Under the pieces are notes generated by a model. That model was given only the letters and a program-made list of their open reading frames with translations, made no database searches and was not told the DNA's origin. Shown here piece by piece: positions 28,124 to 60,021 of a DNA stretch of 64,000 nt. This DNA comes from Minisyncoccota bacterium (GTDB lineage Bacteria; Patescibacteriota; Minisyncoccia; Phycocordibacterales; CAIZLB01): contig DASWWM010000034.1 of assembly GCA_036405975.1 (NCBI GenBank), positions 4,675-68,674 on the forward strand, written 5' to 3'. The translations under genes and the position numbers were made by a program. Within the stretch, counting starts at the first letter, position 1, and the number at the start of each line of letters is the position of its first letter.

Positions 28124-28196
28124 TGGGGGATACAGGACTCGAACCTGTGACCTTCTCAGTGTAAATGAGTTGCTCTACCAACTGAGCTAATCCCCC
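28124..28196 (-). tRNA. tRNA-Val (anticodon TAC)
   Basis: The reverse complement reads GGGGGAT TA GCTC AGTTGGTA GAGC A ACTCA TTTACAC TGAGA AGGTC ACAGG TTCGAGT CCTGT ATCCCCC A. A terminator hairpin follows immediately on the minus strand (28093-28113 plus a U-run). Confidence 0.85.
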
Positions 28197-28253
28197 GATG
28201 TCGACCACTATACATCAAAGCCTTTCTAATTTCAAATTTTTGAAAACGGGCAT

Positions 28254-29069
28254 TTGCGTGGTACTGTAACGTTAATGACACAAATTGTGCCTAAAAATAT
28301 AGAAATTCTCTTCGAAAATGACGATTTTCTGGCCATAAACAAGCCGGCTGGCCTTGTCGTGCATTCGGACGGAAAGACGGTTGAACCGAGCGTATGCGAC
28401 TGGGTTCTCGAAAAGTACCCTGAAGTGAAAGGGGTAGGAGAGCCTTCTCGGCTCCCGGATGGCTCGATGGTTGATCGTCCTGGCATCGTTCACCGACTCG
28501 ACCGAGACACTTCAGGCGTGCTTCTCATTGTCAAAAATCAGCCCACTTTCGAGTTCTTCAAGGACCTGTTCAAGCGGCATGTTATCCAGAAGCGATACAA
28601 TACGATCGTTTGGGGTGAGGTGAAGCTCGACAAGGGCAAGATTGACCGACCGATCGGTCGGAGCAAGAGCGACTTCCGGAAATGGTCTGCCGAGCGGTTC
28701 GCCCGAGGCGAGCTCCGAGAGGCATTGACCGAATATGAGGTTGCCAAGCGAATTGACCTCACTGATGACTCAGAGAGGGCTCAGCATGGCCATTCTTTCA
28801 AGAATAACCCTGAATTCATCCCTAAATTCACCTTCCTGGATGTCTATCCGAAGACCGGCAGGACTCATCAGATCCGAGTCCATTTCAAGGCGATCAACCA
28901 TCCGGTAGTAGGAGATGGCCTCTACGCTCCAAATCACCCGAAAGCGCTTGGTTTCGAACGGCTTGCACTCCATGCCCGATCTGTCGATTTTACTGCCCCT
29001 TCAGGTGACCGTGTGCTCATTGAGGCACCTCTTCCGGCTGACTTCGAGGCCGCTTTACTTAATATATAA
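28254..29069 (+). CDS. RluA-family pseudouridine synthase
   Basis: [13 protein letters not shown] and [12 protein letters not shown] (catalytic Asp motif) are present. [12 protein letters not shown] is also present, and the protein is 271 aa. Confidence 0.85.
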
Positions 29070-29080
29070 GGTCTGCTATA

Positions 29081-29536
29081 TTGATGTCCCATATGACAGC
29101 TACAACTAAAACAGCTAAAAAGCCTGTAAAGCTCGCTTCCGACAAGGGTTCAAAACTCAAGGATTTCGACATGCGAGTGGGTGACACAGTACGAGTTCAC
29201 CAGAAGATCCAGGAAAAAGGAAAGACTCGACTCCAGGTTTTCGAAGGAATGGTCCTCGCTCGAAAGCACGGTGCTGAGAAGGGTGCTACGTTCACAGTTC
29301 GAAAGAACGCAGGAGGATACGGAGTAGAACGAATTTTCCCTCTCTTCTCTCCAATGATCGACAAGGTAGAAGTCGTTCGACGAGCCAAGGTCCGACGAGC
29401 TAAGCTCTACTACATCCGAGACAAGGCTGCTAAGGAAATCAGCAAGCGAATGAAGATGGAAATGATGCGAGCTGACAGCAATGACGTCCAGGTAGAAGAG
29501 GACGAAGCTCCAGCAGCAGAAGTTGCAGCTGAATAA
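29081..29536 (+). CDS. rplS: 50S ribosomal protein L19 (with N- and C-terminal extensions)
   Basis: The core [85 protein letters not shown] matches the L19 family. Confidence 0.85.
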
Positions 29537-29546
29537 TCTCAATACG

Positions 29547-29584
29547 AAAAAGCCCCGCTCTGCTCTCAGACGGGGCTTTTTTCT
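29547..29584 (+). terminator. Intrinsic terminator after rplS
   Basis: agccccg (29551-57) pairs with cggggct (29571-77), followed by tttttt. Confidence 0.75.
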
Positions 29585-29628
29585 TTGCCAGTTCATGGTC
29601 GACTCAGGGCTGCGCTATCTGGCTACGT

Positions 29629-29657
29629 TTGCAAAAGGGTCTGTTTTTATGTACTAT
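29629..29657 (+). promoter_or_regulatory. Sigma-70-like promoter for tRNA-Leu
   Basis: TTGCAA (29629-34), a 17 nt spacer, then TACTAT (29652-57). It lies 32 nt upstream of the tRNA 5' end. Confidence 0.45.
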
Positions 29658-29689
29658 TCCGTCACAAGCTGTTAGTTGGCTTGGGGAAT

Positions 29690-29773
29690 GCGCGGGTGTT
29701 GAAACTGGTAGACAAGCTACCTTGAGGTGGTAGTGCTCGTAAGGGCGTGGAGGTTCAAGTCCTCTCCCGCGCA
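29690..29773 (+). tRNA. tRNA-Leu (anticodon GAG)
   Basis: The acceptor stem is GCGCGGG paired with CCCGCGC. The anticodon arm is CTACC TTGAGGT GGTAG, giving GAG with G37. It has a long variable arm and the T-loop TTCAAGT. A terminator hairpin lies at 29776-29817. Confidence 0.85.
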
Positions 29774-29903
29774 CAATAAATAAAAGACCCAGATGAATTC
29801 TGGGTCTTTTATTTATCCATGATAGCGGGTGAAAAGCGGGGCTCCGAGAGGCTTGTCTTGTGAAGCAACTTCATAATCTAATCAATTGACCTTCATGTGA
29901 GGG

Positions 29904-30710
29904 GTGTATAATGAATCCATTATGATGCCACGAAAAAAATCAAAGCTTCTTGTTTCAGCTATCTTGCTCGTGCTGGCCGGACTCGTCACCCTTATCTTCA
30001 TTCAGTCCCGCCGACCAAATGAGCTCCCTTCTAGCGTGCTCGGTGTCTCGTCATCAACTCCTGCTCTGACAGGGAACGTCAAGGTTGAAACTTCAAAGAA
30101 TGAAACCGCGGATTACCAGACCGAGGTGAACATTCCACAGTTCGAGAATCCTGGCGATTCATTTGCACTTCAGCATATCAATAAGCAGATTAAGGATAAT
30201 GTCGGACAGCTTGTCATGAATTTTACCGAGGAGATACAGCAGATAAAAACCGAATCTCCCGACAGCCCTTTTAACGATCCGAGCCTTCCGAAGCATTCGC
30301 TCATGATCAAGGTCGCGAGCGCCAAAGAGGTTTCAGGGAAGTATTTCGTAGTAGAGCTTAAGGATTACTCATATGTCTCAGGGTCAGCGCATCCATTCAC
30401 GGCCACCATTGCATATAACTTCGACCTCAAGACTGGTGATCTTATTGGACTGTCCGACATATACAAGGACAAGGCGCAATTCCTTCAGGCGGTGTCAACG
30501 TTCGCAAAAAAGGAGCTTCAGCCAAAACTTGAATCCTTCTTCGAAGATGGGATTTCTCCGCAGGAGCAGAACTTCTCCGTCTACACTCTCGTGGAGGGCG
30601 GCATCCGATTCGTCTTTGACCAGTACCAGGTTGCACCGTATGCGGCAGGGGAGCAGAGCGTAACCGTGCCTGCATCAGCGCTTGCCGGTCAGCTTAAAAT
30701 CGCTCTGTAG
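29904..30710 (+). CDS. Membrane-anchored DUF3298/DUF4163 (RsiV/PdaC-like) domain protein
   Basis: An N-terminal TM helix, then ...YVSGSAHPFTATIAYNFDLKTGDLIGLSDIY..., which resembles the DUF3298 core. The protein is 268 aa. Confidence 0.5.
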   Translation: MYNESIMMPRKKSKLLVSAILLVLAGLVTLIFIQSRRPNELPSSVLGVSSSTPALTGNVKVETSKNETADYQTEVNIPQFENPGDSFALQHINKQIKDNVGQLVMNFTEEIQQIKTESPDSPFNDPSLPKHSLMIKVASAKEVSGKYFVVELKDYSYVSGSAHPFTATIAYNFDLKTGDLIGLSDIYKDKAQFLQAVSTFAKKELQPKLESFFEDGISPQEQNFSVYTLVEGGIRFVFDQYQVAPYAAGEQSVTVPASALAGQLKIAL

Positions 30711-30815
30711 CTTTGCTTCGGTGAGCATTCCTCGTCTCAAGGCCTCATTGCTGGCCATTTCTCAAAAGATTTGATATAACTGTGAGCACGCAATGGCTTC
30801 GGCCAAAGCGCATAT

Positions 30816-30889
30816 GGTGCCCATAGCTTAGTGGTAAAGCTCCAGTCTGTGGATCTGGCTACGAGAGTTCGATCCTCTCTGGGCACCCA
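30816..30889 (+). tRNA. tRNA-His (anticodon GTG) with encoded G-1
   Basis: G(-1) GTGCCCA TA GCTT... CCAGT CTGTGGA TCTGG CTAC GAGAG TTCGATC CTCTC TGGGCAC C. The extra 5' G pairs with C73. A terminator hairpin lies at 30903-30933. Confidence 0.8.
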
Positions 30890-46466: not shown

Positions 46467-46550
46467 GAGTTCGTTCCAGTCGGTGTCATGCGCGGCGCCT
46501 CACGTTTTTGTGAGGCGCCGCTTTTCATGCTATATATAGGTTACATTCAT

Positions 46551-48398
46551 ATGAAAAACCTCATTAAAAATGCCATCGATAGGGCGGTTTCGGATACGGG
46601 CTGCACGGAGTCAGTTTCTTTTGTCATCGAGCGGCCAGCCGATATGTCTCATGGAGACTATGCCACAAACGTCGCCATGGTTCTCGGTCCGAAGCTCAAG
46701 CGGTCTCCCGTATCCGTCGCTATCGACATCGTCGAAAAACTGAAAGCCGAGATCTCATTGGAAGAAAGCGAACTCGGTCGCGCACTTCAAGGGGCTGAAG
46801 TCGCGGGTCCTGGTTTCATCAACTTGAAGCTCAGAGCCGAAGTTCATCAAAGGGAGATTTCAGAAATAGTATCGAAGGGGGGTGCGTACGGATCACACCG
46901 GTCTCTTGCCGGACAAAAGATGGCATTCGAATATACGGATCCGAATCCTTTCAAGGTTTTTCATATTGGCCATCTCATGGCGAATACGGTAGGAGAGGCG
47001 CTCTCGAGAATTGCCGGAAAGAACGGTGCAGACATTAAGCGATACTGCTATCAGGGCGATGTCGGAAGGCATGTGGCACTCACGATCTGGGGCCTCAGAT
47101 TTTTGAATCAGGATCTGCCAAACGATGATGCGTCGGTCTCAGAGAAAGTCGCATACTTCGGAAAGTCATATGCCCTCGGCGCTACGGAGTATAAGCGACT
47201 TGAAGATGAAGCAAAGAAGAATGGCGAAGTCGATGCGACTGACAGGCCTACTTCAAAAGCATTTCTTGAAGCTGACGAAGAGGTCCAGCTCATCAATAAG
47301 AAAATCTACGATCGAAGCGATGCTGAAATCAATGAGCTCTACGATGTCGGAAAGGAGTGGAGCCTTGAGCATTTCGAAGAGCTCTATGCGATTCTCGATA
47401 CCAAGTTCGACAGGTATTTCTTCGAAAGCCAGACTGCTCCTATCGGCATCGAAATTATCAAGGCGAACACTGCGCCAAACGGCAAGGGCGTATTTGAGGA
47501 AAGCAACGGGGCTGTCATTTTCCCTGGAGAAAAGTACGGCCTGCATACGCGAGTCTTTCTTACGCGAAACGGTCTTCCCGGATACGAGGCAAAGGAGATA
47601 GGCTTGGTCAAATACAAATACGAGGCCGAGCCGTATGACAGGTCTATAATTGTCACAGCAAATGAGCAGGACGGATATTTCAAGGTTGTCATGAAGGCTG
47701 CCGAATTTATCTTTCCGGATATCGCCGCGAAGAACAGCCATGTATCTCATGGCATGCTTAGGCTGACGACAGGAAAAATGTCTTCGCGAACCGGAGATGT
47801 CATCACGGGCGAATCTCTGCTTGCATCCATGACTGAGCTTTCATTGGAGAAGATGAAGGAACGGGAGATTTCGGATGAAGAAAAGAAGAGCGTTGCGGAA
47901 GCTGTAGCCGTTGCTGCGATTAAGTATACGATCCTCAGACAGGCGACAGGGAAGGACGTCATCTTCGATCCTGAGAAATCACTTTCATTCGAAGGCGACT
48001 CAGGTCCATACCTCCAATACTCATGCGTCCGAGCCGCATCACTTATCGAGAAGGCGAGAGCTGCTAATATCCCTGAGTACGTCTTTGTGCCAGGCGCAGC
48101 GGCTCCGTCATCGGCATCCGGGACCGCCGTTTTTTCCGCACAGCAGGACAAGCTTGAAAGGCTTTTGGGCAGATTCCCTGAAGTTACTGAAAGGGCTTGG
48201 ACGGATATGGCCCCGCATCATATCGCGAACTATCTCATGGAACTGGCAGGATCATTCAACTCCTTCTATGCGTCTACGCAGGTTATAAAGGAAGGGGATG
48301 CTGCTTCTGCGTACAAGGTGGCACTGGTAAGGGCGTTTTCAATAGTGATGAAAAGCGGGCTCAATGTCCTTGGAATCAAGGTTCCATCAAAGATGTAG
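46551..48398 (+). CDS. argS: Arginyl-tRNA synthetase
   Basis: The N-terminal add-1 domain, FEYTDPNPFKVFHIGHLMANTVGEA (HIGH), GKMSSRTGDVI (KMSKS variant) and a DALR-like C-terminus are present. The start is at the internal Met 46551, after the upstream terminator. Confidence 0.9.
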   Translation: MKNLIKNAIDRAVSDTGCTESVSFVIERPADMSHGDYATNVAMVLGPKLKRSPVSVAIDIVEKLKAEISLEESELGRALQGAEVAGPGFINLKLRAEVHQREISEIVSKGGAYGSHRSLAGQKMAFEYTDPNPFKVFHIGHLMANTVGEALSRIAGKNGADIKRYCYQGDVGRHVALTIWGLRFLNQDLPNDDASVSEKVAYFGKSYALGATEYKRLEDEAKKNGEVDATDRPTSKAFLEADEEVQLINKKIYDRSDAEINELYDVGKEWSLEHFEELYAILDTKFDRYFFESQTAPIGIEIIKANTAPNGKGVFEESNGAVIFPGEKYGLHTRVFLTRNGLPGYEAKEIGLVKYKYEAEPYDRSIIVTANEQDGYFKVVMKAAEFIFPDIAAKNSHVSHGMLRLTTGKMSSRTGDVITGESLLASMTELSLEKMKEREISDEEKKSVAEAVAVAAIKYTILRQATGKDVIFDPEKSLSFEGDSGPYLQYSCVRAASLIEKARAANIPEYVFVPGAAAPSSASGTAVFSAQQDKLERLLGRFPEVTERAWTDMAPHHIANYLMELAGSFNSFYASTQVIKEGDAASAYKVALVRAFSIVMKSGLNVLGIKVPSKM

Positions 48399-48542
48399 GG
48401 CAAGATCGGTTGTAAAATGGAAAGGGAGAAAAAGGCCTCGCCGGCGCATGTGGATAGGAGTCGGCAAGGCCTTTTTGCGTCATAGTACAATTAAGAACGT
48501 AATCACTCATTACGCTTATTAATTCTATTCCTTACCAAATTC

Positions 48543-50528
48543 ATGCAGAAATTTAGAAAAATTGCGGTAACGGCGATCTTCGCTTGCGCATTGGCGTTTG
48601 CGGGATCCTCTCCGGCTCCAGCGGCAGCGGCGACATGCGTTGATCTGCAGGCCAATATCCGGGTAGGAGACAAGGGTGCGAATGTCGCGAGTCTCCAGAC
48701 TTTCCTTTCGGAGCAGGGATTCCTCAAGGCAAAGGTTGATGGCTCTTATGGTCCTCAGACAAAGGCCGCTGTCCTTGCCTTTCAGGCAACGAGAAACCTG
48801 GTATCCGATCCAGCCGGATTTATTGGCGCGGGATCGAGAGCCCAGATCAAGGCTATCTCATGCGGAGGCACGGTAACTCCTGTGAATCCCGGCACGACTG
48901 CCCCGACTCAGCCGGGTACTTCGTATTTGCAGCCAAACATTGCGGTCTGCCAGCCCGGAATGCTCTTCAATACGGCAACGGGGCAGCCTTGCGTATCGTC
49001 TTCATCGGTGACTCCTTATACGAATATTCCTGGTTGTACCGCCACTTCGCTGTTCAGCATCGTGACAGGCCAGCGATGTGACGGGACTCAGAGCCAGACT
49101 CCGTCACAGACCGTTCTTCCTGCCGGATGTTTTCCCGGTTCACTTTTCAGCATCGTAACGGGTCTTCCGTGCTCGTCAAATAATTCTCAGACGCCTTTTA
49201 TTCCCGATACCGGAACCCCATATAACCAGAAGCCCGATCTCAGGATTACTGATGTCGTCTGTACGCCCTCATCGATCCGCGTGGGCGACAGGGTAAACTG
49301 CGACGTGTCGATAGAAAATAACAGCTCGGTAAATATCGACAGCTCATTCAATGTCGAGGTTCTCGGCGTGATCAAGACCGTTCCTTCTCCGCTCTATGCA
49401 TGGATGAAGCAGACCGTCTCGATTCCGGGGGCTTTCAGCCTTGGCACTACCGGATTCACGACTGTGAACTTCAGAATCGATTCGAGCGGAACCGTTGATG
49501 AGATCAATGAATCCAATAACACGTACAACAAGTCGTTTTATGCCAACGCTGCTGTAATTCCGGACCTCTCGCTGAATCACGCCTCTCCTACATGTCCTTA
49601 CACGTTCGGAGCAGACCTGTCTGTTGGCTCTTCAGGAAATGATGTGATTGCCCTGCAGAATATTCTCAAGTCACTCCTGTACTATTCCGGAAATTCTCAT
49701 GGATACTTCAATGATGCGGTAAAGGCCGCGGTCAGTGCATTCCAGTCGGCCAAAGGTATAACTCCGGCTGACGGCAATGTCGGTGCCGTGACAAGGGCCT
49801 CGCTCGGTGCCTCCTGCACGGGAACGGGCGGGTCTCTCTCGCTTACGCTCGCGGCAAATGTGAGCGCGACCACTGGATATCAACTCGCGCCCATCACCGT
49901 CAGCTGGACAGGGACCAATGTGATCAGCTCTTCGGTCATGACCGTCGAGCTCATCAAGGCTTCAGACAGCTCGGCTGTTGCCGGCGTCAAGACAACGGCA
50001 AAATATAGCGCGGGCAGCATTGCTGTCACGCTTCCGGCCACTCTTCCTGCTGGTCAGTACAGGTTTGCGGTCAGCACCCCTGTCTCCGGAGGATCGCTCA
50101 GGGCCGTGACGCCAGTCTTCGCAGTTCCTGAAGCCGGTGCGGTTATAAGCGCAAATGGCGCTCATGCGATCGTTGCGGAGGGTCCGAGCACGAAGAATAC
50201 GGGCCTTGTCGCCACATTCAATCTCACAGTCAAGGCGCAAGGCGTCAATATAGGCCTCCTTGCGGCTGCCGACATAGGAGTTGTGTTCATCGGCCCTAAC
50301 GGAGAGGTGATCAACGATGACAGCGTTGCGGTGGTCACGAATCCGAGCCGGACGATTTCAAGCGGGCAATCCGCTCAAGTCACGATCACTTCGAAGGTTG
50401 CTGCATCCAAGATTTCCGCGAGTGGCGCCTGGAAGGCTGATCTTCGAAGCGTGCGATGGGGCACATCCGCGCAGACTGCCCAGTATGTAGGAATCCATAC
50501 TACGCCTACGGTCACGTTCACGAAGTAG
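48543..50528 (+). CDS. Secreted surface protein with two peptidoglycan-binding (PG_binding_1-like) modules, three Cys-bracketed short repeats and a CARDB-like domain
   Basis: Signal peptide. The modules VGDKGANVASLQTFLSEQGFL...DGSYGPQTKAAVLAFQ and GSSGNDVIALQNILKS...GYFNDAVKAAVSAFQ are PG-binding-like. The repeats are CQPGMLFNTATGQPC, CTATSLFSIVTGQRC and CFPGSLFSIVTGLPC. PDLRITDVVCTP...DEINESNNTY is CARDB-like. Confidence 0.6.
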   Translation: MQKFRKIAVTAIFACALAFAGSSPAPAAAATCVDLQANIRVGDKGANVASLQTFLSEQGFLKAKVDGSYGPQTKAAVLAFQATRNLVSDPAGFIGAGSRAQIKAISCGGTVTPVNPGTTAPTQPGTSYLQPNIAVCQPGMLFNTATGQPCVSSSSVTPYTNIPGCTATSLFSIVTGQRCDGTQSQTPSQTVLPAGCFPGSLFSIVTGLPCSSNNSQTPFIPDTGTPYNQKPDLRITDVVCTPSSIRVGDRVNCDVSIENNSSVNIDSSFNVEVLGVIKTVPSPLYAWMKQTVSIPGAFSLGTTGFTTVNFRIDSSGTVDEINESNNTYNKSFYANAAVIPDLSLNHASPTCPYTFGADLSVGSSGNDVIALQNILKSLLYYSGNSHGYFNDAVKAAVSAFQSAKGITPADGNVGAVTRASLGASCTGTGGSLSLTLAANVSATTGYQLAPITVSWTGTNVISSSVMTVELIKASDSSAVAGVKTTAKYSAGSIAVTLPATLPAGQYRFAVSTPVSGGSLRAVTPVFAVPEAGAVISANGAHAIVAEGPSTKNTGLVATFNLTVKAQGVNIGLLAAADIGVVFIGPNGEVINDDSVAVVTNPSRTISSGQSAQVTITSKVAASKISASGAWKADLRSVRWGTSAQTAQYVGIHTTPTVTFTK

Positions 50529-50609
50529 GCTTTGTTTCCAGCCGAATCATCAAAGCCCGCCGTCCGGCATCGGACGGCGGGCTTTACGATTGCCAGAACG
50601 GGATTCATA

Positions 50610-50638
50610 TTGCATTCATACCGCTTTGATACTATATT
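50610..50638 (+). promoter_or_regulatory. Sigma-70-like promoter upstream of trhO
   Basis: TTGCAT (50610-15), a 17 nt spacer, then TATATT (50633-38). Confidence 0.4.
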
Positions 50639-50714
50639 AGGGTTAATTATATAAGGCTTATCTGAGCCTGTGCACTATATAAGTATTAGAAGGTTAAAAT
50701 ACATATATACGCCC

Positions 50715-51785
50715 ATGACTGAGGCTGCTCAAAACCCATACGAAATAATCCTGTACTACAAGTACGTCGACCTTGCTGATCCGCAAGGCTTTGTTGATTG
50801 GCATAAGGCTGTCTGTGCAAACCTCAACCTCAAAGGAAGGGTCCTCATTGCGAAAGAGGGAATCAATGGAACGCTCGAAGGGCGAGTGGAAGATACGGCA
50901 GAGTATTGCCGACTCATGCATCTTCAGGACGGTTCAGAGGGAACGTTTGCAGACTTCAGCGATGTCGTATTCAAGCGAAGTCCTGGAACGGGAGTCGCTT
51001 TCCCGAAGCTCAAGGTAAAGCTTCGAGACGAAGTGGTTTCCCTCAAGCTCTCTCACGGTTCGGATGTGAATCCAAATGAAACGACGGGCATTCATCTCAA
51101 GGCAGAAGACCTAAAAAAATGGTATGAGACAGGCGAGGACTTCCTCATCGTCGATATGAGAAATGACTACGAATACAAAGTGGGGCATTTTGAAGGATCG
51201 ATCAATCCTAAAATGACAAACTTCCGAGACCTTCCCGACGTCCTTCCGGCACTTGAAGAAGTTAAAAAGGCTTCGCTTGAAGGAAAGAAAATCATCACGG
51301 TCTGTACGGGAGGAATTCGATGCGAAAAGGCGTCAGGCTTTCTGATGAAGAACGGATTCGAGAATGTGTACCAGCTCGATGGGGGGATGCATACATATAT
51401 GGAGAAATTCCCAGGTCAGGATTTCAACGGCGCTCTCTATGTATTCGATGGGCGAGAAACGATGGCATTCACCGATGACCGGCAGATTATCGGAAGGTGC
51501 ATCGCATGCGATACGGCTACTGAGCAGTTCACGAATTGCGCGCATATCAGATGTCATGCAAAGACTCTCATCTGCGGTCCCTGCATCAAGAAATCTCTTG
51601 CAGAAGCTCGGACCCTTGTCGAGGAAAATCCCGCATTCGGTCCCGTAGTGAACAAGATCCTGACTGAAGAGACGAGCGCATTTGTATTCTGCTCTGACGA
51701 ATGCCGCGCTGCGGCCATGGAAAGAATTGAGAAGGCTGCGAAGGCATCTTCTGCGGTGCCTGTTGCAGCGATTGTCGGTGCATAA
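50715..51785 (+). CDS. trhO: Rhodanese-domain tRNA uridine(34) hydroxylase TrhO (YceA/UPF0176)
   Basis: ILYYKYVDLADPQGFVDWHKAVCANLNLKGRVLIAKEGINGTLEG is the UPF0176 N-terminus. The rhodanese catalytic Cys is in TVCTGGIRCEKA, and there is a C-terminal Cys-rich tail. Confidence 0.8.
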   Translation: MTEAAQNPYEIILYYKYVDLADPQGFVDWHKAVCANLNLKGRVLIAKEGINGTLEGRVEDTAEYCRLMHLQDGSEGTFADFSDVVFKRSPGTGVAFPKLKVKLRDEVVSLKLSHGSDVNPNETTGIHLKAEDLKKWYETGEDFLIVDMRNDYEYKVGHFEGSINPKMTNFRDLPDVLPALEEVKKASLEGKKIITVCTGGIRCEKASGFLMKNGFENVYQLDGGMHTYMEKFPGQDFNGALYVFDGRETMAFTDDRQIIGRCIACDTATEQFTNCAHIRCHAKTLICGPCIKKSLAEARTLVEENPAFGPVVNKILTEETSAFVFCSDECRAAAMERIEKAAKASSAVPVAAIVGA

Positions 51786-52194
51786 TTTGACTCTTTGGGA
51801 TTCAAGGAGCAGAATGATATTCCAGAAGGCCCTTTGACTGTCAGCTCACGCTGCGGAAGGTTCCATCGCAACCAACAACTTGGAGGCTCGTTAACAACAT
51901 GAGTGAAGTTCCGAAGAATGCTACCGTTAAACGTCTGCGGCCATGGCGCCGAATCCAGTGTGCACCGTCTCGTGGTCCGTATTGGCCGCGGATCAGGCTT
52001 ATTGTCACGCGATCTCGTCTTGGCAGGTTCTCGTCTAACTAAGCGTTCTCTCACATGTGTTATAGGCCGCCAGCATTCCGCTGGCGGCCTTTTCTATTGC
52101 CACAAATGCCCAAAGTGCTACTATATTTTTATTGCACGGACGAGCCATAAAAAGCAGGCCATGCAGCTTTAGAAAATAACAACCAAATAAGAAA
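51786..52194 (+). promoter_or_regulatory. Long (about 400 nt) ileS leader with candidate promoter and an intrinsic terminator hairpin about 100 nt before the ATG (attenuator / T-box-like candidate)
   Basis: TTGACT at 51787-92 is a possible -35. The terminator aggccgccagc-attcc-gctggcggcct plus ttttc lies at 52065-52098. No clean T-box consensus (GGGTGGNACCGCG) was found; the nearest is gtggtccgtattggccgcgg at 51979-51998. Confidence 0.35.
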
Positions 52195-55100
52195 ATGGCA
52201 GAGAAGACCAATCCAGAGCCCCAGACAGAGGTACATGCGGGCGATGCACTCAAGACAGTCTCTGCCCAAAGGGAAGAAGCGGTTCTTTCCTTTTGGCAGA
52301 ACAACCATATATTCGAAAAGAGCCTGAAAAGGGAATCTCCAAAAGGCAATTTCGTAATTTTTGACGGACCTCCTTACGCGACGGGCTTGCCGCACTACGG
52401 CCACATACTTCCTTCGACTATCAAGGACATCATCCCGCGGTACAAGACCATGCAGGGGTATTTCGTTCCTCGACGATGGGGATGGGACTGCCACGGTCTC
52501 CCGATCGAGAATCTCATCGAGAAGCAGCTCGGACTGAAAGACAAGAAGGCGATCGAAGAATACGGCATCGGCAATTTCAATAAAGCTGCGAAGGACAGCG
52601 TATTCGGCTATGCTCGCGACTGGAAAAGGATCATCGGCAAAGTAGGGCGATGGGTCGATATGGAAAATGACTATCATACGATGGACTCAAGCTATACGGA
52701 GTCAGTATGGTGGTCTTTCAAGGCGCTTCAGGAAAAAGGACTTGTATACGATGCCTTCAAGGTGATGCCGTATTGTCCTCGATGCGAGACATCGCTCTCT
52801 AACTTCGAAGTCGGTTTGGGATATAAGGATATTCCTGATATTTCAGCGTACGTCCTGTTCCCGGTATTGGGAGATGGCGGAAAGGCCACTGAAGAAAATT
52901 TCCTTGCATGGACGACGACCCCTTGGACTCTTCCCGGAAATACCGCACTCGCGCTCAATCCTGAACTTGAATACGTACTCGTGCGAGCGAGGACTGCGTC
53001 AGGCTCAACCCTCGTATGGGTTGCAAAAGATCTCGTTGCCGGACTTTCTGCAAAAGGCATTCTCCAGAAGCCCGAAGGCGATGGGTCGGCTGATTTCGAA
53101 GCGCTCAAGATGAAGAAGGGTTCCGAGCTTTCCGGCATTTCATACACGCCTCCCTTCGATTTCTACACAGCCGCAGGGTCTCTTGCTCCTGACCAGGAAT
53201 CAAAGCGTCCTTCAGCATGGAAGACGCATGTCGCAGATTTTGTAACTGCCGAAGACGGTACAGGCATCGTGCACATTGCACCGGCATTCGGAGATGACGA
53301 CTCCAAGCTCGCTCATGCAAACGGTATCCCTGTGATACAGCATGTCGGACGGGACGGACGACTCAAAGAAGGCCTTGGAAACCTCTCCGGACTTCATGCC
53401 AAGGAAAAGGCAAATCACCAGGCTACTGACATCGAAGTGATCAAGCTTCTTGCACATGCGACCGTCTCTGACGGATCGCCCCTTCTCTTCGCGAAGGAAA
53501 AGCTCGTGCACTCATATCCGCATTGCTGGAGATGCGAGACGCCTCTTCTCAACTATGCGACAACGTCATGGTTTGTTCAGGTTACAAAGCTCAAGGATCA
53601 GCTGATCGAGGCCAATGCCACTGTTAACTGGGTTCCAAAAGAAGTGGGAGAAGGACGGTTTGGGAAATGGCTCGAGAATGTCCGGGATTGGGCCGTATCG
53701 CGAACTCGATACTGGGGAGCTCCGCTTCCTATATGGAAAGGCGAGAAGACCGGACGAGCCGAGTTCATCGGTTCCGTCTCAGAGCTTAGGGAGAGGATTG
53801 CTGACAATGGAAACAGCTTCCTTTTGATGCGACATGGGGAGTCCGAGTCGAATACCAAGAATGTGATCAATTCAAGCGTTGCCGACCTTGATCTTTATCC
53901 GCTTACGGAAGCCGGGAAGACCCAAGTTGAGGCATCGGCACGGGCAATCATCGAGCGACAGCAGAAGCGAGGCAAGAAGATCACGAGGATCTACGCTTCA
54001 GATTTTAGACGAACAAAAGAGACTGCCCGACAGGTTGCTTCAGCACTCGGACTTGATCCGAACGACATCGTATTCGATGCGAGGATTCGAGAGGTTAATG
54101 CCGGAGATTTTAATGGCGGCAGCTGGAAGCAGAGAGATGAATATTTCCCGACACTTCATGAGCGAATCTTCAAGAAATGTCCGAATGGCGAGTCAGTCGC
54201 TGATCTTAAGAAAAGGACTGCTGAATTCCTCTACGACATCGAATCAAAGCATAAGGGCGAAGATATCCTCGTCGTTACGCATGGCCTGCCACTTCGGCTC
54301 ATGATGGGCACGGCTGAAGGAAAGACTTCGAGGGACATGCTCCGGTCTGGCTGGAGAGACTACTCCGATCCGACGGCATCGCTCCATGAATGCCATTTCA
54401 AGCCGCTTCCTCACAATGAGAACTTCGAGCTCGATCTCCATCGGCCATTCATCGATGAGATCGTTTGGAATGCACAGACTCCTGACGGAGGAACTGAGGT
54501 CATGCGAAGGATTCCTGACGTATTCGACGTATGGTATGACTCGGGATCGATGCCGTTTGCTCAGAACCATTACCCGTTCGAATCAAAGGACGAGTTCGAG
54601 AAGGAGGGCAGCACCCTGTTTCCGGCAGACTTCATCTCAGAGGGGATCGATCAGACCCGAGGCTGGTTCTACTCGCTCATGGTTCTTTCGGTGGCTCTCT
54701 TTGGAAAAGCGCCGTATAAGAATGTGACGGTAAACGGACTCATCCTTGCAGAAGACGGAAGGAAAATGTCGAAGAGCCTCAAGAACTATCCGGACCTTGA
54801 GCCCACGCTTGAAAAGTACGGAGGCGATTCGCTCCGGTTCATGCTCGCATCGTCTCCCGCGACTCATGCAGAGGAAGTGCTGTTCTCTGAGAAGGCGCTC
54901 GACGAGGTGAATAAGAAAATCTTCAATCGACTTGAGAACGTATATACGTTCTACAAGATGTACGCCTCTGAAGGATTGGCGGGGGAGACCTTGTCCCATG
55001 ACTCCGTGCCGATGAGCGTTCATGTTCTCGACAAGTGGATCATCTCTCGACTCGCGGAACTCAAGCTCGAAGTCGAAAAGAATCTTGACCTGTATCAGAT

Positions 55101-55899
55101 AGATAAGGCTGCCCGACCGATCAACCTATTCGTTGATGACATCTCGACATGGTATCTCCGACGGTCACGAGATCGATTCAAGGGAGATGACGCTGCGGAC
55201 AAGCAGGCAGCTATCGATACTACCCGTTTCGCTCTCATGACAGTGTCAAAGATCATTGCTCCGTTCGTGCCGTTCATGGCTGAGCACATGTATCAGAACC
55301 TCAAGGCTGATGCCGCTGCCGCAAGTTCGGCTCTCGCCGTTACGATGCCTGAAAGCGTGCATCTCTGCGACTGGCCGACATTGCCTGAGCCGGACATGGC
55401 CCTTATCGACTCTATGGCATCGCTTCGGAAGCTTGTCGAGACTGGCTTGGCCCTTCGGTCAAAGGCTGGCATCAAGGTGCGGCAGCCACTTGCCTCGTTT
55501 GCCTACAATGCGGGCGAAATGAATCTCTCTGCCGAACTTGCGGAGATTGCAGCGGATGAGCTCAATGTGAAGAATGTCGTGGCGGGAACTGAAGTGTCGC
55601 TTGATACTGAGCTGACAAAGGAGCTCAAGGACGAAGGTCTCGTCCGAGACGTCATCCGCGCGATCCAGGAGGGAAGAAAGCTTGCGGGGCTGAATCCTGG
55701 CGATTCGATCTCTCTCGAGCTCGGTTCTGACACTGTGACACTTGAGATTCTCAAGGCATATGAACAGATGATCAAGAAGCCTGTTCTCGCCGAAGCCGTT
55801 GCTTACGGAGATGTCAATGATGCGGCGGGACAGGTTATCGAAGTCGAATCTGCGAAGGTCAGCATCCTCATCAATGTCTCATCACATCTATCAAACTAA
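52195..55899 (+). CDS. ileS: Isoleucyl-tRNA synthetase carrying an in-frame inserted histidine-phosphatase (PGAM-like) domain
   Basis: The protein is 1234 aa. IleRS motifs are present: GPPYATGLPHYGHIL (HIGH), the CP1 editing region, DWAVSRTRYWGAPLPIW, DLHRPFIDEI, DVWYDSGSMPFAQ and GRKMSKSLKNYPD (KMSKS). Between WGAPLPIW and DLHRP, at about aa 538-735, lies LLMRHGESESN...RIYASDFRRTKETA...ILVVTHGLPLRLMMG, which carries the His_Phos_1 catalytic RHG, Arg and HG motifs. Confidence 0.85.
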   Translation: MAEKTNPEPQTEVHAGDALKTVSAQREEAVLSFWQNNHIFEKSLKRESPKGNFVIFDGPPYATGLPHYGHILPSTIKDIIPRYKTMQGYFVPRRWGWDCHGLPIENLIEKQLGLKDKKAIEEYGIGNFNKAAKDSVFGYARDWKRIIGKVGRWVDMENDYHTMDSSYTESVWWSFKALQEKGLVYDAFKVMPYCPRCETSLSNFEVGLGYKDIPDISAYVLFPVLGDGGKATEENFLAWTTTPWTLPGNTALALNPELEYVLVRARTASGSTLVWVAKDLVAGLSAKGILQKPEGDGSADFEALKMKKGSELSGISYTPPFDFYTAAGSLAPDQESKRPSAWKTHVADFVTAEDGTGIVHIAPAFGDDDSKLAHANGIPVIQHVGRDGRLKEGLGNLSGLHAKEKANHQATDIEVIKLLAHATVSDGSPLLFAKEKLVHSYPHCWRCETPLLNYATTSWFVQVTKLKDQLIEANATVNWVPKEVGEGRFGKWLENVRDWAVSRTRYWGAPLPIWKGEKTGRAEFIGSVSELRERIADNGNSFLLMRHGESESNTKNVINSSVADLDLYPLTEAGKTQVEASARAIIERQQKRGKKITRIYASDFRRTKETARQVASALGLDPNDIVFDARIREVNAGDFNGGSWKQRDEYFPTLHERIFKKCPNGESVADLKKRTAEFLYDIESKHKGEDILVVTHGLPLRLMMGTAEGKTSRDMLRSGWRDYSDPTASLHECHFKPLPHNENFELDLHRPFIDEIVWNAQTPDGGTEVMRRIPDVFDVWYDSGSMPFAQNHYPFESKDEFEKEGSTLFPADFISEGIDQTRGWFYSLMVLSVALFGKAPYKNVTVNGLILAEDGRKMSKSLKNYPDLEPTLEKYGGDSLRFMLASSPATHAEEVLFSEKALDEVNKKIFNRLENVYTFYKMYASEGLAGETLSHDSVPMSVHVLDKWIISRLAELKLEVEKNLDLYQIDKAARPINLFVDDISTWYLRRSRDRFKGDDAADKQAAIDTTRFALMTVSKIIAPFVPFMAEHMYQNLKADAAAASSALAVTMPESVHLCDWPTLPEPDMALIDSMASLRKLVETGLALRSKAGIKVRQPLASFAYNAGEMNLSAELAEIAADELNVKNVVAGTEVSLDTELTKELKDEGLVRDVIRAIQEGRKLAGLNPGDSISLELGSDTVTLEILKAYEQMIKKPVLAEAVAYGDVNDAAGQVIEVESAKVSILINVSSHLSN

Positions 55900-56464
55900 T
55901 GCATTCGTCCTAGGCAGTTCTGATCTGGGCGAAGCGAACAAGACCCTGCTTCTCTTCACTGAGGAGCTGGGTGTTTTGTATGCGGTGGCGCAGGGCATAA
56001 GGCTTCAGAAGTCGAAGCTCAAGGCGTCGCTCCAGGATTTCTCGTATATACGAGTCTGTTTAGTAAAAGGAAAGGAGGTGTGGAGGCTGACGAGTGCCGA
56101 GAAGCTCATATCTCTTTATGACAAGCGCCTTTCGCTCGAAGCGCGAAAGGCGCTTGCGGGCATTCTCCGGTTTGTACAGAGAATGTCTCCGGGGGAAGGA
56201 AAGCAGAAAGACCTATTTGAGATTCTGACCAAGCTTTGCGCATACGTATTCCAGAACAAGATTGATCTTGCAAAGATTCATTTGATTTCGGTAGTGGCCA
56301 AGTTCAAGATTCTTCATGTGCTCGGGTACGGATCGGGCAACGACGAGTTGGTGAAGAGGTATCAAGGATCAGAATGGAATGATGCCCTTATCGAAGGTGC
56401 TTCAAAAGATGAAGAAGCGCTGAACAGGCACAATGAAACGGCTCTTCGAGAAAGTCATCTGTGA
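55874..56464 (+). CDS. recO: DNA repair protein RecO (short form)
   Basis: MSHHIYQTNAFVLGSSDLGEANKTLLLFTEELGVLYAVAQGIRLQKSKLKASLQDFSYIRVCLVKGKEVWRL matches the RecO N-terminal OB fold. The start is at the internal Met and overlaps the ileS 3' end by 26 nt. Confidence 0.65.
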   Translation: MSHHIYQTNAFVLGSSDLGEANKTLLLFTEELGVLYAVAQGIRLQKSKLKASLQDFSYIRVCLVKGKEVWRLTSAEKLISLYDKRLSLEARKALAGILRFVQRMSPGEGKQKDLFEILTKLCAYVFQNKIDLAKIHLISVVAKFKILHVLGYGSGNDELVKRYQGSEWNDALIEGASKDEEALNRHNETALRESHL

Positions 56465-56479
56465 TATACTTTTATCCAT

Positions 56480-58432
56480 ATGGCAATGGATGACAGCAAA
56501 ATTGAGCAGCTCAAGAACAGGCTGAATTCTAATTCGGAAACAGATCCTGTTCCGGTCACGCATAGGCAGAAGCTTCCGCGGCACAGCGTCTTGGTGGGCC
56601 AGGCCTGGGAAGGGGATGCTACCGAGGAAAACCCCATCATCCGGCCTGACTTCGCAAAACTAAATCAATATGAGGACAAAAGCCCCCTCAAGAAGATACT
56701 CCTGGCGGTATTCTTGCTGTTCATCGCCGCGGTTGCATTTGCCGGATATGTCATTTTCTCAGGGGCAAATTTCGTCTCGAATAACAACATCGACATTCGG
56801 CTTATCGGTCCTGTGAGTTCGCCTGCAGGAGAAGAGCTCTCGCTCGATGTGGATATTACGAACCGGAATAAGACGGAGCTTCTTCTGGCCGACCTCGTTG
56901 TCACGTATCCTGAAGGAACGAGGTCGGCCAGTGACCGCATCACTCCGCTCCTGACTGACAGGACTGCCGTTGGAACCATCAAGGCGGGAGAGTCCGTGCG
57001 GCTCACTGTTAAGTCTGTTCTCTTCGGCGAGGAGAATGTTAAAAAGAATATCAATGTGGCACTTGAGTACGGCATTCCCGGATCAAGCAATATTTTCATA
57101 AAAGATAAGCAGTATCCGATGTTCATTGGTTCTTCGCCGATCACGGTAAACATCGAGGCGTTGAGAGAGGTGACTCCGGAACAGGAGGCGGACTTCAAAG
57201 TGAAGATCAAGTCGAATAGCTCGTCCATCGTTCGAGGCCTCATTCTCAAGGTGGAGTACCCATTCGGATTCGAATTCATCAGCTCTCTTCCGCAAGTTAC
57301 GGGTGACTCTGGCACCTGGGTTCTTGGGGACGTAAACCCAGGAGAAGAGCGAGAGATCGCCATCCGAGGGCGGATGATAGGCGGAGAAAATCAGGAGCGC
57401 GTATTCAGGTTCTATACTGGAACCGAAGATCCCAATGACAAGACGTCGATTGGCACCATTTTCGTGACCAACTCGGCAACTGTCGCACTCAAGAAACCGT
57501 TCCTCGGGGCTGATATCTCATTGGATGGAAAGACATCTGCCACATATGTCACATATGCCGGTGAGACCGTGAAGGGGGAGATCACATGGCAGAATAACCT
57601 CAATGTTCCCCTGAACGACGTCGTCGTCGAGGCGCGGATTGCCGGACAGATGCTCGACCGGCTCAGCATTCAGGGAGACCGAGGCTTTTACAGGTCAATC
57701 GACAATACCATTCTCTGGGACAGGACAACTCTCGCTGAGCTCAGGGAAGTCGGTCCGGGCCAGATAGGACGCCTTCAGTTCTCATTCTCGCCCGTCTCTC
57801 TCACTGCAAAGAATGCATCAGAGCTCACAAGGCAGGAGATGACGATCGATCTTGCGATCAGGGCAAAGCGATTTAGCGAGGACAATGTTCCTGTTGAAAT
57901 CACATCGAATATCGCGCGAAAGATTCAGATCGCATCAAACCTGGATATCACGACTGGTGCCATTCGGACTGTCGGTCCGTTCCAGAATACAGGACCTGTT
58001 CCGCCTATGCCTGAGCAGAAAACGACATATACCATGTTCGTCAGCGTCACCAACTCGTATAACAATGTGAAGGATGCGGTATATACGGCAACTCTTCCTG
58101 CCTATGTCGAATGGCTTGGAAAGGTATACCCTGAGAATTCAAGCGTGAAGTACAATGCCGATACACGACAGATCACGTGGCCAGTCGGGGACATCTCTTC
58201 GGGTACCGGATACTCGTCGAGCAAGAAGGAATTCGCATTCCAGGTCCAGCTTCTTCCGAGCTTGAGCCAGATCGGAACGTCGCCCATTCTCGTTGGAAGC
58301 CAGAAGCTCACAGGCCGTGACAATTTCACAGGAACCATCGTCGAGAGCAAGACGCAGTCTTCAGATACGAAGATGAGCACGGATCCCGCGTACAAGTTCG
58401 GCGACGAGAAGGTCGGTGGGGAGGGCAGGTAA
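56480..58432 (+). CDS. Large bitopic surface protein with repeated beta-sandwich-like (CARDB/DUF11-like) modules
   Basis: A 650 aa protein. It has a cytoplasmic N-terminus of about 65 aa, a TM helix (ILLAVFLLFIAAVAFAGYVIF), then about four similar 120 aa modules rich in V/T/G and starting ...I.L.V.I.N... Confidence 0.5.
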   Translation: MAMDDSKIEQLKNRLNSNSETDPVPVTHRQKLPRHSVLVGQAWEGDATEENPIIRPDFAKLNQYEDKSPLKKILLAVFLLFIAAVAFAGYVIFSGANFVSNNNIDIRLIGPVSSPAGEELSLDVDITNRNKTELLLADLVVTYPEGTRSASDRITPLLTDRTAVGTIKAGESVRLTVKSVLFGEENVKKNINVALEYGIPGSSNIFIKDKQYPMFIGSSPITVNIEALREVTPEQEADFKVKIKSNSSSIVRGLILKVEYPFGFEFISSLPQVTGDSGTWVLGDVNPGEEREIAIRGRMIGGENQERVFRFYTGTEDPNDKTSIGTIFVTNSATVALKKPFLGADISLDGKTSATYVTYAGETVKGEITWQNNLNVPLNDVVVEARIAGQMLDRLSIQGDRGFYRSIDNTILWDRTTLAELREVGPGQIGRLQFSFSPVSLTAKNASELTRQEMTIDLAIRAKRFSEDNVPVEITSNIARKIQIASNLDITTGAIRTVGPFQNTGPVPPMPEQKTTYTMFVSVTNSYNNVKDAVYTATLPAYVEWLGKVYPENSSVKYNADTRQITWPVGDISSGTGYSSSKKEFAFQVQLLPSLSQIGTSPILVGSQKLTGRDNFTGTIVESKTQSSDTKMSTDPAYKFGDEKVGGEGR

Positions 58433-58521
58433 GGCTTGTCTGAATCGAATAGCTCTCGCATGTAATGCGCGGATGTCCGCGCATTTACTATTGCCATTAA
58501 AACCGCTACTATTGTCACATT

Positions 58522-60021
58522 ATGACAAATACACCGACGAATTACCCTGAAAATACGATGGAAAAGCTCATTTCGCTCTCGAAGCGAAAAGGGTTCATCT
58601 ACCAGGGGTCGGAGATTTACGGAGGACTCGCGGGAACGTGGGATTACGGACCGCTCGGAGTTGCCCTCAAGAACAATATCAAGAATATCTGGTGGAAAAG
58701 GTTCGTCCTCGACCGGGAAGACATGTACGGAGTCGATGCGGCAATCCTCATGAACCAGGAGGTGTGGAAGGCCAGCGGTCATGTCGGCGGTTTCTCTGAT
58801 CCATTGGTCGAAGACCTGAAGACGAACAAGCGCTATCGAGCCGATCATCTCATTGAGGACTTTGCAGAAAAGAATCCTGCAGCGGGTGTCGATACAAAAG
58901 GAATGGGCCTTGCGTATATGGCCGAGGTCATCAAGAACAATGGCATCAAGAGTCCCGAGGGAAATCCGCTTGGCGAGGTGCGACAGTTCAATATGATGTT
59001 CAAGACGAGCGTCGGCGCAATGCAGGACGAAGGATCTGTTTCATATCTTCGACCTGAGACTGCACAGGGAATGTTCGTAAACTTCAAGAATGTCGTCGAC
59101 TCATTCCATCCGAAGCTTCCGTTCGGCCTTGCTCAGATCGGAAAGGCCTTCCGAAACGAGATCGCCCCGCGAGATTTCATTTTCCGAACGCGAGAGTTCG
59201 AACAGATGGAGATCGAGTATTTCATAAAGCCTCCGAAGAATGACGAAGACAAGGCATGGGAGGAGGTGTTCAATCATTTCAGGGAACAGGTCGTGGCATT
59301 CACGACCGACATCGGACTTAATCCGGCAAAGATCCATGAGCTTGAGGTGGCCGGTGCTGACCGAGCTCACTACTCAAAGCGAACCATCGACTTCGAATTC
59401 GACTATACGTTTGGACGAAAAGAGCTGTACGGCCTTGCATACCGAACTGACTTCGACCTCGGCGCTCATATGAATGCGTCAAAGGCAGACCTCAGGTATT
59501 TCGAAGAGCAGTCAGAAGAGACTGATCCTGAAAAAAAGAAATACGTTGCGCATTGCATCGAGCCTTCATTCGGAGTTGACCGAACGGTGCTTGCGGTTCT
59601 TATGGATGCATACGCGGAGGATGAGCTCGGAGGCGAGCCGCGAGCTTTTATGAAATTCTCTCCGAAAGTCGCACCAGTTTTGGCTGCGGTTTCTCCGCTT
59701 CTCAAGAACAAGCCGCATCTCGTTGAGAAGGCGAGAGAGGTGTACGGATCTCTTCGAAAGGCATTTCCAGGACGAGTGGTGTTCGATGACAATGGAAATG
59801 TTGGAAAGCGATACCGACGACAGGATGAGATCGGTACCCCGTTCTGCATCGTGATCGACTTCGATACGATCGAGGGTACAGATGAAAGCGGCCAGGACAA
59901 ATACGACGACAATGGTCAACCACTTCTCAATACAGTAACCGTTCGACACCGAGATACAGGCGAACAGGTGCGAATGGGAATCTTCGAGGTCGAGGCGTAC
60001 ATCCGGGCTTCGCTTGCATAG
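58522..60021 (+). CDS. glyQS: Glycyl-tRNA synthetase (homodimeric class II GlyQS type)
   Basis: FIYQGSEIYGGLAGTWDYGPLGVALKNNIKNIWWKRFV, class II motifs (FRNEIAPRDFIFRTREFEQME; GVDRTVLAV) and a C-terminal anticodon-binding domain are present. The protein is 499 aa. Confidence 0.9.
   Translation: MTNTPTNYPENTMEKLISLSKRKGFIYQGSEIYGGLAGTWDYGPLGVALKNNIKNIWWKRFVLDREDMYGVDAAILMNQEVWKASGHVGGFSDPLVEDLKTNKRYRADHLIEDFAEKNPAAGVDTKGMGLAYMAEVIKNNGIKSPEGNPLGEVRQFNMMFKTSVGAMQDEGSVSYLRPETAQGMFVNFKNVVDSFHPKLPFGLAQIGKAFRNEIAPRDFIFRTREFEQMEIEYFIKPPKNDEDKAWEEVFNHFREQVVAFTTDIGLNPAKIHELEVAGADRAHYSKRTIDFEFDYTFGRKELYGLAYRTDFDLGAHMNASKADLRYFEEQSEETDPEKKKYVAHCIEPSFGVDRTVLAVLMDAYAEDELGGEPRAFMKFSPKVAPVLAAVSPLLKNKPHLVEKAREVYGSLRKAFPGRVVFDDNGNVGKRYRRQDEIGTPFCIVIDFDTIEGTDESGQDKYDDNGQPLLNTVTVRHRDTGEQVRMGIFEVEAYIRASLA

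Follow-up and report, generated by a model that had tools for sequence, protein, structure and literature searches.

The window analysed here, a 64-kb stretch of contig DASWWM010000034.1 (assembly GCA_036405975.1, Minisyncoccota bacterium) to which the locus analysis was confined, contains a gene for isoleucyl-tRNA synthetase (IleRS), ileS, whose product carries a histidine-phosphatase domain nested in the CP3 subdomain of the catalytic region. The open reading frame (ORF; 52195..55899, on the plus strand, as are all the features of the gene and its flanks given below) runs uninterrupted from ATG to TAA and codes for 1234 amino acids (aa). The product is best read as a bifunctional synthetase-phosphatase, whose second activity and chemistry would be those of the superfamily to which the nested domain belongs. 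This architecture is not rare, being the normal state of IleRS in a large clade of Patescibacteria (Paceibacteria/Parcubacteria type). As for its role, the phosphatase may act in cis at the synthetase, on something that the synthetase handles, a reading to which we assign a probability of roughly 45%.

By score and signatures, the host enzyme is a complete and, as judged from its sequence, working isoleucyl-tRNA synthetase of type 2 (eukaryote/Thermus-like). Specifically, the whole protein scores 848 bits against the NCBIfam ileS equivalog TIGR00392 (cut-off 621.4), and its nearest solved relatives are 1ile from Thermus thermophilus (E = 7e-208) and 8c8u, the IleRS2 of Priestia megaterium (E = 1e-207). 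It shares with them the domain order, the HIGH and KMSKS signatures, CP1, the anticodon-binding domain and DUF5915, whereas neither of them has a 200-aa enzyme domain in CP3 and the window protein, in turn, is devoid of the zinc-knuckle cysteines of the Thermus CP3. In 110 homologs, the HIGH signature of the class I ATP site (H67-Y-G-H70; 52393..52404) has invariant H67 and G69 and an H70 conserved in at least 90%, and K857 and K860 of the KMSKS signature loop (aa 857-861; 54763..54777) are invariant. The CP1 editing domain (approximately aa 208-445; 52816..53529), aligned to the editing-domain chains 1wk8 and 1ue0, has both of its motifs, TTTPWTLPGN and GTGIVHIAPAFG, which are conserved in homologs, and Pfam places the anticodon-binding domain PF08264 at 55030..55491 and the C-terminal DUF5915 domain, typical of type-2 IleRS, at 55516..55872. 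Two specialised identities were rejected: the mupirocin-resistant enzymes MupA/MupB (NF000257/NF000258) match at 670 and 713 bits versus a cut-off of 1900, a resemblance due to type-2 ancestry only, and the IleRS with a GNAT domain (NF040702) matches at 303 bits versus 1999, with no GNAT domain found by Pfam.

Pfam finds the synthetase domain tRNA-synt_1 (PF00133) broken into two stretches, with His_Phos_1 (PF00300) in between. The PF00300 match extends over aa 543-719 (E = 2.5e-31, 109-114 bits versus a gathering cut-off of 21.7) and covers 170 of the 194 model positions. Because the alignment to the T. thermophilus enzyme (1ile_A) resumes cleanly on either side, with query residues 26-535 matching 13-480 and residues 736-1093 matching 482-821, the extra material is a single contiguous insert of about 200 aa (aa 536-735; 53800..54399), which Pfam, NCBIfam, the alignment and AlphaFold2 identify as a histidine-phosphatase domain of branch 1 and which stands in place of about one residue of the Thermus protein. 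W514 and D778 are 264 aa apart in the window protein; given an insert of about 200 aa, the normal spacing is therefore about 60 aa. An original prediction, drawn by a model from the letters of the stretch, had described an ileS ORF of 1234 aa with an in-frame phosphatase domain at 53806-54400, formed by one contiguous block of about 200 aa in a gap that spans about 50 aa in ordinary IleRS. The ORF, the domain and the single block were all borne out, the coordinates agree almost exactly and the gap closely; moreover, the strong His_Phos_1 match is joined by the failure of the region to align to normal IleRS.

The insert contains the full catalytic set of branch 1, namely R546, H547, N553, R606, E633 and H696. 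The predicted phosphate-binding arginine and nucleophilic histidine are found in R546-H547-G548 (53830..53838), and the second phosphate-binding arginine, R606 (54010..54012), lies in the motif SDFRRTKETA. The predicted general acid, E633 (54091..54093), lies in REVNAGDFNG, which aligns with LREIHLGDWEG of PhoE, and the second catalytic histidine belongs to H696-G697 (54280..54285) in VVTHG. The RHG, RRTKETA, REVNAGDFNG and THG motifs quoted in the original prediction are thus all in place. Among 71 species-level sequences, each from one genome, R546, H547, R606 and H696 are conserved in 100%, G548 in 99%, and N553 and E633 in 97%, and in a separate set of 110 proteins all six catalytic residues are invariant. 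With the set intact and conserved, both enzymes of the window protein look functional, as far as sequence can tell, and the near-invariance of these residues in more than 100 divergent homologs supports the earlier assessment of the domain as probably active. By homology, catalysis would follow the standard two-step mechanism of the superfamily, in which H547 would attack a phosphomonoester to form a phospho-histidine, R546, R606 and H696 would hold the phosphate, with N553 conserved beside them, and E633 would protonate the leaving group and then activate water.

Distribution, conservation and copy number of the insert

The same 1234-aa product, identical throughout, is encoded by contigs from two sequencing runs that were assembled separately. 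A profile made of junction, insert and junction (A2), scanned against one genome per GTDB species, matches at least 80 species genomes, and the best 80 loci all cover the whole insert and both junctions at 33-65% identity, nearly all of them labelled Patescibacteria, Parcubacteria, Paceibacteria, Nomurabacteria, Zambryskibacteria or similar. Wherever the contig permits (about 70 other species), the insert lies within a continuous ORF of 1100-1250 aa, and PF00133 and PF00300 occur together in all 120 of the 120 best full-length homologs, down to 49% identity. Moreover, an exhaustive hidden Markov model (HMM) search of 1.84 billion cluster representatives (clusters at 50% identity) with the junction-plus-insert profile returned 195 clusters at or below E = 1e-30; among the top 150, almost every one covers the full profile unbroken. 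Two short representatives (P0208, P0215), considered as free-standing close relatives, turned out to be contig-limited or fragmentary.

A chimeric assembly, or a frameshift masking a separate phosphatase gene, can be dismissed for practical purposes: the identical product comes from two independent assemblies, the ORF is continuous in the other species, both junctions are conserved among relatives, and a counterpart in valyl-tRNA synthetase (ValRS; see below) is located on a 1.37-Mb contig with "55x" in its name. The GC (guanine plus cytosine) content is flat across the insert, with no break at its edges, boundary repeats were looked for at these edges and none were found, and a scan for promoter and terminator matches on the plus strand inside ileS and the insert returned none. 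An origin as an intein or mobile element was likewise rejected, there being no splicing motifs and no boundary repeats, and the domain being conserved as an enzyme. The misjoin or frameshift that the original prediction had named as a danger is therefore countered by independent assemblies and by at least 80 other species with the same continuous ORF, and its proposed survey of IleRS in the Candidate Phyla Radiation (CPR) and Parcubacteria is answered by the same insertion in at least 80 species genomes and 195 clusters. Its view of the architecture as undescribed stands insofar as a literature search (IleRS or aminoacyl-tRNA synthetase combined with histidine phosphatase, phosphoglycerate mutase (PGAM), CPR, Patescibacteria or Parcubacteria) found no description of it; any notion of rarity falls, since the architecture is widespread and its sequences are already public under generic names. 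Publications dealing with SepRS in Parcubacteria or with HIT phosphoramidases were set aside as having no bearing on the architecture.

In annotation, the nested feature is invisible because NCBI gives the window protein and many of its relatives no name beyond "class I tRNA ligase family protein", despite a TIGR00392 score above the cut-off; the record of the identical product reads [quoted passage not shown], and JGI names the same protein family "isoleucyl-tRNA synthetase". The nested domain may be the reason why NCBI withholds the specific name. Enzyme-bearing IleRSs are not unprecedented, since NCBIfam curates NF040702, [quoted passage not shown], which resembles the window protein in being an IleRS with an extra enzymatic domain and differs from it in its cargo, a GNAT rather than a phosphatase; a literature search for IleRS with GNAT found nothing relevant.

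The insert diverges faster than the catalytic core (mean pairwise identity of 37% versus 55%), and its column conservation is approximately that of the anticodon-binding and C-terminal domains. Conversely to the catalytic set, the cap region for substrate specificity (approximately aa 638-664) is poorly conserved. Relative to the closest ortholog (81% identity), the nonsynonymous and synonymous differences per site (pN/pS) are 0.17/0.80 in the insert, a ratio of about 0.2, and 0.112/0.667 in the whole gene, where pN/pS is given in place of the corresponding substitution rates (dN/dS) because synonymous sites are saturated in the insert (pS = 0.80). This saturation notwithstanding, the sequence comparison indicates that the insert is under purifying selection. 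Pairwise distances of insert and core are significantly but weakly correlated (Mantel r = 0.28, reached by 0 of 999 permutations), a congruence compatible with a single ancient gain of the domain and its vertical inheritance since.

The local HMM count of His_Phos_1 copies in 150 representatives gave one copy in 142, two in seven and four in one. The tandem two-copy IleRSs P0184, P0201, P0242 and P0263 hold both copies in CP3, and in the subclade P0201/P0242/P0263 these are orthologous copy for copy, with 52-56% identity among first copies and 41-44% among second copies. As the two copies within one IleRS share 27-33% identity, where any match is found, and are orthologous across species, the duplication is old and maintained. 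In P0220, P0237 and P0256, by contrast in site, the first copy is in CP3 and the second between the KMSKS region and the anticodon-binding domain. Other cargo was found in two of 236 proteins by a BLAST gap scan and Pfam, both known from protein sequence alone: P0253 contains an in-frame P-loop kinase-like domain after DSGSMP (aa 725-911), with weak matches to APS, shikimate and polynucleotide kinases, and P0186 contains a segment resembling a REP-associated tyrosine (Y1) transposase inside CP1, together with a GNAT (aa 316-496 and 921-1066). The occupant of CP3 is always His_Phos_1 within the sets, which were selected for carrying the insert.

The four-copy protein (P0173) proved to be a ValRS fragment. 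With P0173 as query, 119 other ValRS clusters were listed, and His_Phos_1 is present in 70 of them (one copy in 57, two in 12, three in one), in a ranking that is biased by the four copies of the query. Most ValRS copies (75 of 84) start 8-20 aa after WWGHxIPxW, that is, in CP3, and some are also found in the CP2 region; R-H-[G/A/S] is retained in 81 of 82 copies. The spacing from WWGH to DTWFSS is 40-44 aa in insert-free ValRS relatives and 221-239 aa in insert-bearing ones, of which two examples score above the valS equivalog cut-off (853 and 948 bits versus 704). Insert-bearing ValRSs (among P0276-P0393, with one locus, L090, at 3001-6372) come from sources labelled Gracilibacteria and Peregrinibacteria, and a Nomurabacteria-labelled ValRS (P0380) is without insert while Nomurabacteria-labelled IleRS loci have it. 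Like the window IleRS, the ValRSs with His_Phos_1 (e.g., P0283, P0342) are class Ia editing synthetases with one to three catalytically intact domains in CP3; they differ in the host enzyme, in the entry point into CP3 (about 12 aa after the W-motif versus about 30 aa in IleRS) and in forming a separate insert group. Mean scores are 87-93 bits within the groups and 48 bits between them, and each group is as far from the other as from a set of four free-standing phosphatases, or farther. The separate grouping and the different entry point suggest, short of proof, that the inserts of IleRS and ValRS go back to two independent, convergent acquisitions.

The same data bear on the idea of a non-catalytic module, ligand-sensing or purely structural, that would modulate IleRS without turnover. 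A predicted rigid docking beside the active-site entrance and the poorly conserved cap region would suit it, but the catalytic set stays complete and invariant across deeply divergent sequences and the R-H motif is nearly always kept in extra copies and in ValRS inserts, whereas pseudoenzymes normally lose such residues, making this idea very improbable.

Affiliation of the nested phosphatase

By sequence and predicted fold, the insert is a PhoE-like member of the superfamily that lies outside every characterised subfamily and is better read as a phosphatase than as a glycolytic mutase. Its nearest solved proteins by sequence are PhoE/YhfR (E = 1e-10) and the phosphoserine phosphatase PspA. 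With the predicted structure as query, Foldseek returns PspA, the glucosyl-3-phosphoglycerate phosphatase Rv2419c, TIGAR, PhoE and a riboflavin-pathway phosphatase, at template-modelling (TM) scores of 0.64-0.72 and identities of at most 27%, and the probability of 1.00 to PspA, Rv2419c and PhoE places the modelled domain in the alpha/beta fold of the superfamily. PhoE/YhfR (1H2E/1EBB) and PspA (4IJ5) resemble the insert in fold, size class (about 200 aa) and catalytic residues; unlike the insert, they are free-standing, and they are only 25-27% identical to it. The best NCBIfam match of the insert is NF005567 (85.6 bits versus a cut-off of 326), and the nearest non-synthetase database relative (P0002) has the corresponding RNase H / acid phosphatase architecture. 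Such bifunctional proteins of the Rv2228c type also join His_Phos_1 to a nucleic-acid enzyme, although in an end-to-end fusion rather than a nested one.

Specific identities were rejected one after another at the NCBIfam cut-offs. The alpha-ribazole phosphatase CobC (TIGR03162) reaches 78.5 bits versus 162.9, PspA (NF045917) 67.5 versus 350 although it is the top structural neighbour, and the phosphohistidine phosphatase SixA (TIGR00249) 27.1 versus 74.5, over the N-terminal part only; the insert is far below the cut-off of the GpmB equivalog as well. Since no equivalog cut-off is reached, the substrate cannot be transferred by homology.

The original prediction had assigned the domain to the phosphoglycerate-mutase branch, which is correct for the branch-1 superfamily; within it, the insert resembles the small PhoE/PspA-type enzymes and not the mutase proper. 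That it could be the organism's cofactor-dependent phosphoglycerate mutase (dPGM), a glycolytic enzyme fused into IleRS, is improbable. Fermentative Patescibacteria require a mutase, dPGM belongs to the same superfamily, and there are weak matches to the small archaeal dPGM model (NF038349, 72 bits) and to the Schizosaccharomyces pombe enzyme 1fzt. Nevertheless, all the dPGM equivalog models fall far below their cut-offs (NF038349, 72 versus 225 bits; TIGR01258, 28.6 versus 81.7; NF002339, 42.7 versus 316; NF010713, 26 versus 305), and the best matches are phosphatases. Moreover, dPGM has G-N after the second histidine and a long C-terminal tail, whereas the insert has G-L at this position and the tail is missing.

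Position in CP3 and proposed role

The insert is preceded by the CP2-3 linker VRDWAVSRTRYWG (aa 496-508; 53680..53718), which is homologous to ARDWNVSRNRYWG of yeast IleRS, and by the N-terminal half of CP3 (aa 509-535; 53719..53799), consisting of two strands and a helix according to the AlphaFold2 model and to published descriptions of type-2 IleRS. It is followed by the C-terminal half of CP3 (aa 736-775; 54400..54519), comprising KPLPHNENFELDLHRPFID and a beta hairpin in the 1ile alignment and the model, and by the return to the Rossmann fold at DVWYDSG (54526-54546), placed by sequence and alignment. In yeast IleRS, the linker ARDWNVSRNRYWG helps to line the pocket of reveromycin and CP3 starts directly after it (PMC7955072); that paper assigns the pocket to the tRNA binding site. 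CP3 topology differs among the IleRSs of Candida, Thermus and Staphylococcus, and the zinc motif is found only in the Thermus CP3 (PMC7191050). The zinc-knuckle cysteines of the T. thermophilus CP3 are lost in the window protein and retained in 55 of 216 relatives. Because in these, about a quarter of the insert-bearing relatives, the cysteines form two pairs that flank the insert, the phosphatase would sit at the distal end of the CP3 zinc knuckle.

The AlphaFold2 model of the insert alone has a predicted local distance difference test score (pLDDT) of 96.8 and a predicted TM score (pTM) of 0.93, and a larger model, covering aa 1-1100 of the 1234, has a pLDDT of 92.2 and a pTM of 0.88, with 91-98 in the linker blocks. 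Given the pTM of the larger model and its linker values, the phosphatase is predicted to be rigidly docked and not tethered. WGxPxPxW and RHG are separated by 28-33 aa in 213 of 216 sequences, and RHG and DxHRP by 188-206 aa (5th to 95th percentile); judging by these spacings and the model, the insert is predicted to be mounted at a fixed position through short linkers of conserved length.

Action of the phosphatase in cis is favoured for three reasons. Two class Ia editing synthetases have a member of the superfamily fixed in the corresponding subdomain, CP3; the mounting, predicted to be rigid, adjoins the pocket assigned to tRNA binding (PMC7955072); and suitable targets are known. Specifically, toxins pyrophosphorylate the 3'-CCA ends of tRNAs in a tRNA-specific manner (PMC11559606; 10.1101/2021.04.30.441581), kinase toxins phosphorylate GltX and TrpS (PMC6581861), and dedicated hydrolases detoxify non-hydrolysable adenylate analogues (PMC7157772). 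The CP1 editing domain of the class Ia synthetases provides a precedent, in that it is hydrolytic, lies nested within the Rossmann fold of IleRS, ValRS and LeuRS, and takes the tRNA 3' end from the synthetic site; its fold and its chemistry, the hydrolysis of the ester in mischarged tRNA, are unrelated to those of the insert, and it is universal, whereas the insert is lineage-restricted. Architecture, fold, conserved catalytic set, selection, distribution and ValRS parallel are observed; catalytic activity and its chemistry are inferred, and even more so are any substrate and any link to aminoacylation. The phosphatase domain would have been gained once, early in the large Patescibacteria clade, and thereafter inherited with the synthetase under purifying selection, fixed in place by its short linkers. 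Three candidate targets in cis would be a ligand of the active site that carries a phosphate, a residue of the synthetase that has itself been phosphorylated, and a phosphate by which the 3'-terminal ribose of tRNA-Ile is blocked. The functions raised in the original prediction (action on aminoacyl-adenylate, on Ap4A-type side products or on a phosphorylated inhibitor) were offered there as speculation and would still count as such. A narrower proposal, unlikely in this precise form, is that the CP3 phosphatase is a third catalytic site that would clear the 3'-terminal ribose of the cognate tRNA, or the ATP-site loop of the synthetase, of a phosphate or pyrophosphate that blocks it. It would thereby provide a built-in repair against phosphorylating toxins (tRNA pyrophosphokinases of the toxSAS type and kinases of the HipA type), for IleRS in one clade and convergently for ValRS in another.

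Several observations weigh against an action in cis. The insert reaches none of the specific NCBIfam equivalogs (CobC, PspA, dPGM, SixA, GpmB), and its closest structural neighbours all act on small metabolites, none on RNA or protein. No contact between CP3 and tRNA is reported in the IleRS-tRNA structure papers covered. That IleRS and ValRS acquired their inserts independently is backed by no more than four free-standing outgroup sequences, at about 29% identity. Lastly, two to four copies are present in some clusters (about 5% for IleRS, and about 19% among the insert-bearing ValRS clusters listed), some with a copy at a second site, and a copy number and site that vary are hard to square with one precise geometry.

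This last point fits better with the phosphatase being an autonomous housekeeping or metabolic enzyme of the PhoE/PspA/GpgP type, housed in a permissive surface loop of an essential and constitutive protein, so that the synthetase would give it expression and a scaffold and no substrate. We regard this as quite possible, if not as the preferred account. It is in keeping with the small-metabolite phosphatases that are its closest relatives in both sequence and structure, with the copy number of one to four and the second insertion site, and with the plasticity of CP3 among IleRSs (PMC7191050). Rare relatives hold unrelated cargo in other loops (the P-loop domain, the GNAT and the Y1 transposase), and these synthetases therefore appear to tolerate insertions; in addition, the short conserved linkers could merely reflect the need to keep CP3 folded. 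However, the nesting of the same superfamily in the same subdomain of two class Ia synthetases would be an unlikely coincidence if position were irrelevant, His_Phos_1 alone occupies CP3 within the sets selected for the insert, and the docking is predicted to be rigid, without flexible linkers. On this balance, the action in cis remains the favoured reading.

Aminoacyl-tRNA synthetases are among the best-studied enzymes, and their accessory domains (editing, tRNA-binding, eukaryotic signalling) have each brought new biology. Here, an extra catalytic domain of another chemistry lies inside the catalytic body; throughout a class of bacteria with very small genomes it has been kept intact, and a paralogous synthetase in sister lineages seems to have gained its like independently. 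If the phosphatase acts on the tRNA end, the enzyme or an active-site ligand, it would represent a new type of translation quality control or self-defence. If, conversely, it is a passenger, it would offer a clean natural case of nested-domain evolution in an essential enzyme, and CP3 would be a site for engineering in foreign domains.

Surroundings of ileS in the window

Upstream of ileS, a terminator-like hairpin of the preceding unit (52064-52090) and a sigma-70-like promoter match (52097-52124) were identified, both as consensus matches only. Three synthetase genes lie within 14 kb (46488-60021), namely those of ArgRS (46488-48398), IleRS (52195-55899) and a class II enzyme with tRNA-synt_2b and HGTP_anticodon domains (58522-60021); between them are genes for a peptidoglycan-binding repeat protein, a UPF0176 rhodanese, RecO and a DUF11 protein, and the gene order is the same in a relative with 81% identity (L088). 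The longest recO-like ORF, with a TTG start at 55799, shares about 100 nucleotides with the 3' end of ileS (55799-55899), and the recO start set by gene callers on related contigs gives an overlap of about 26 nucleotides.

No tRNA-Ile gene was found in the 64-kb window by ARAGORN or Rfam. Eight tRNA genes are distributed over 17 kb (14069-30888), namely Lys-TTT, Arg-GCG, Ser-GGA, Ser-TGA, Arg-TCT, Val-TAC, Leu-GAG and His-GTG, of which the tRNA-Leu was found by ARAGORN and missed by Rfam at the gathering threshold. Lastly, the window codes for a 500-aa DNA glycosylase of the Fpg/Nei type (15201-16703, minus strand), in which the Fapy_DNA_glyco domain starts only from residue 187, so that the 186 or so residues before it are either an unassigned N-terminal extension or the product of a mis-set start codon.

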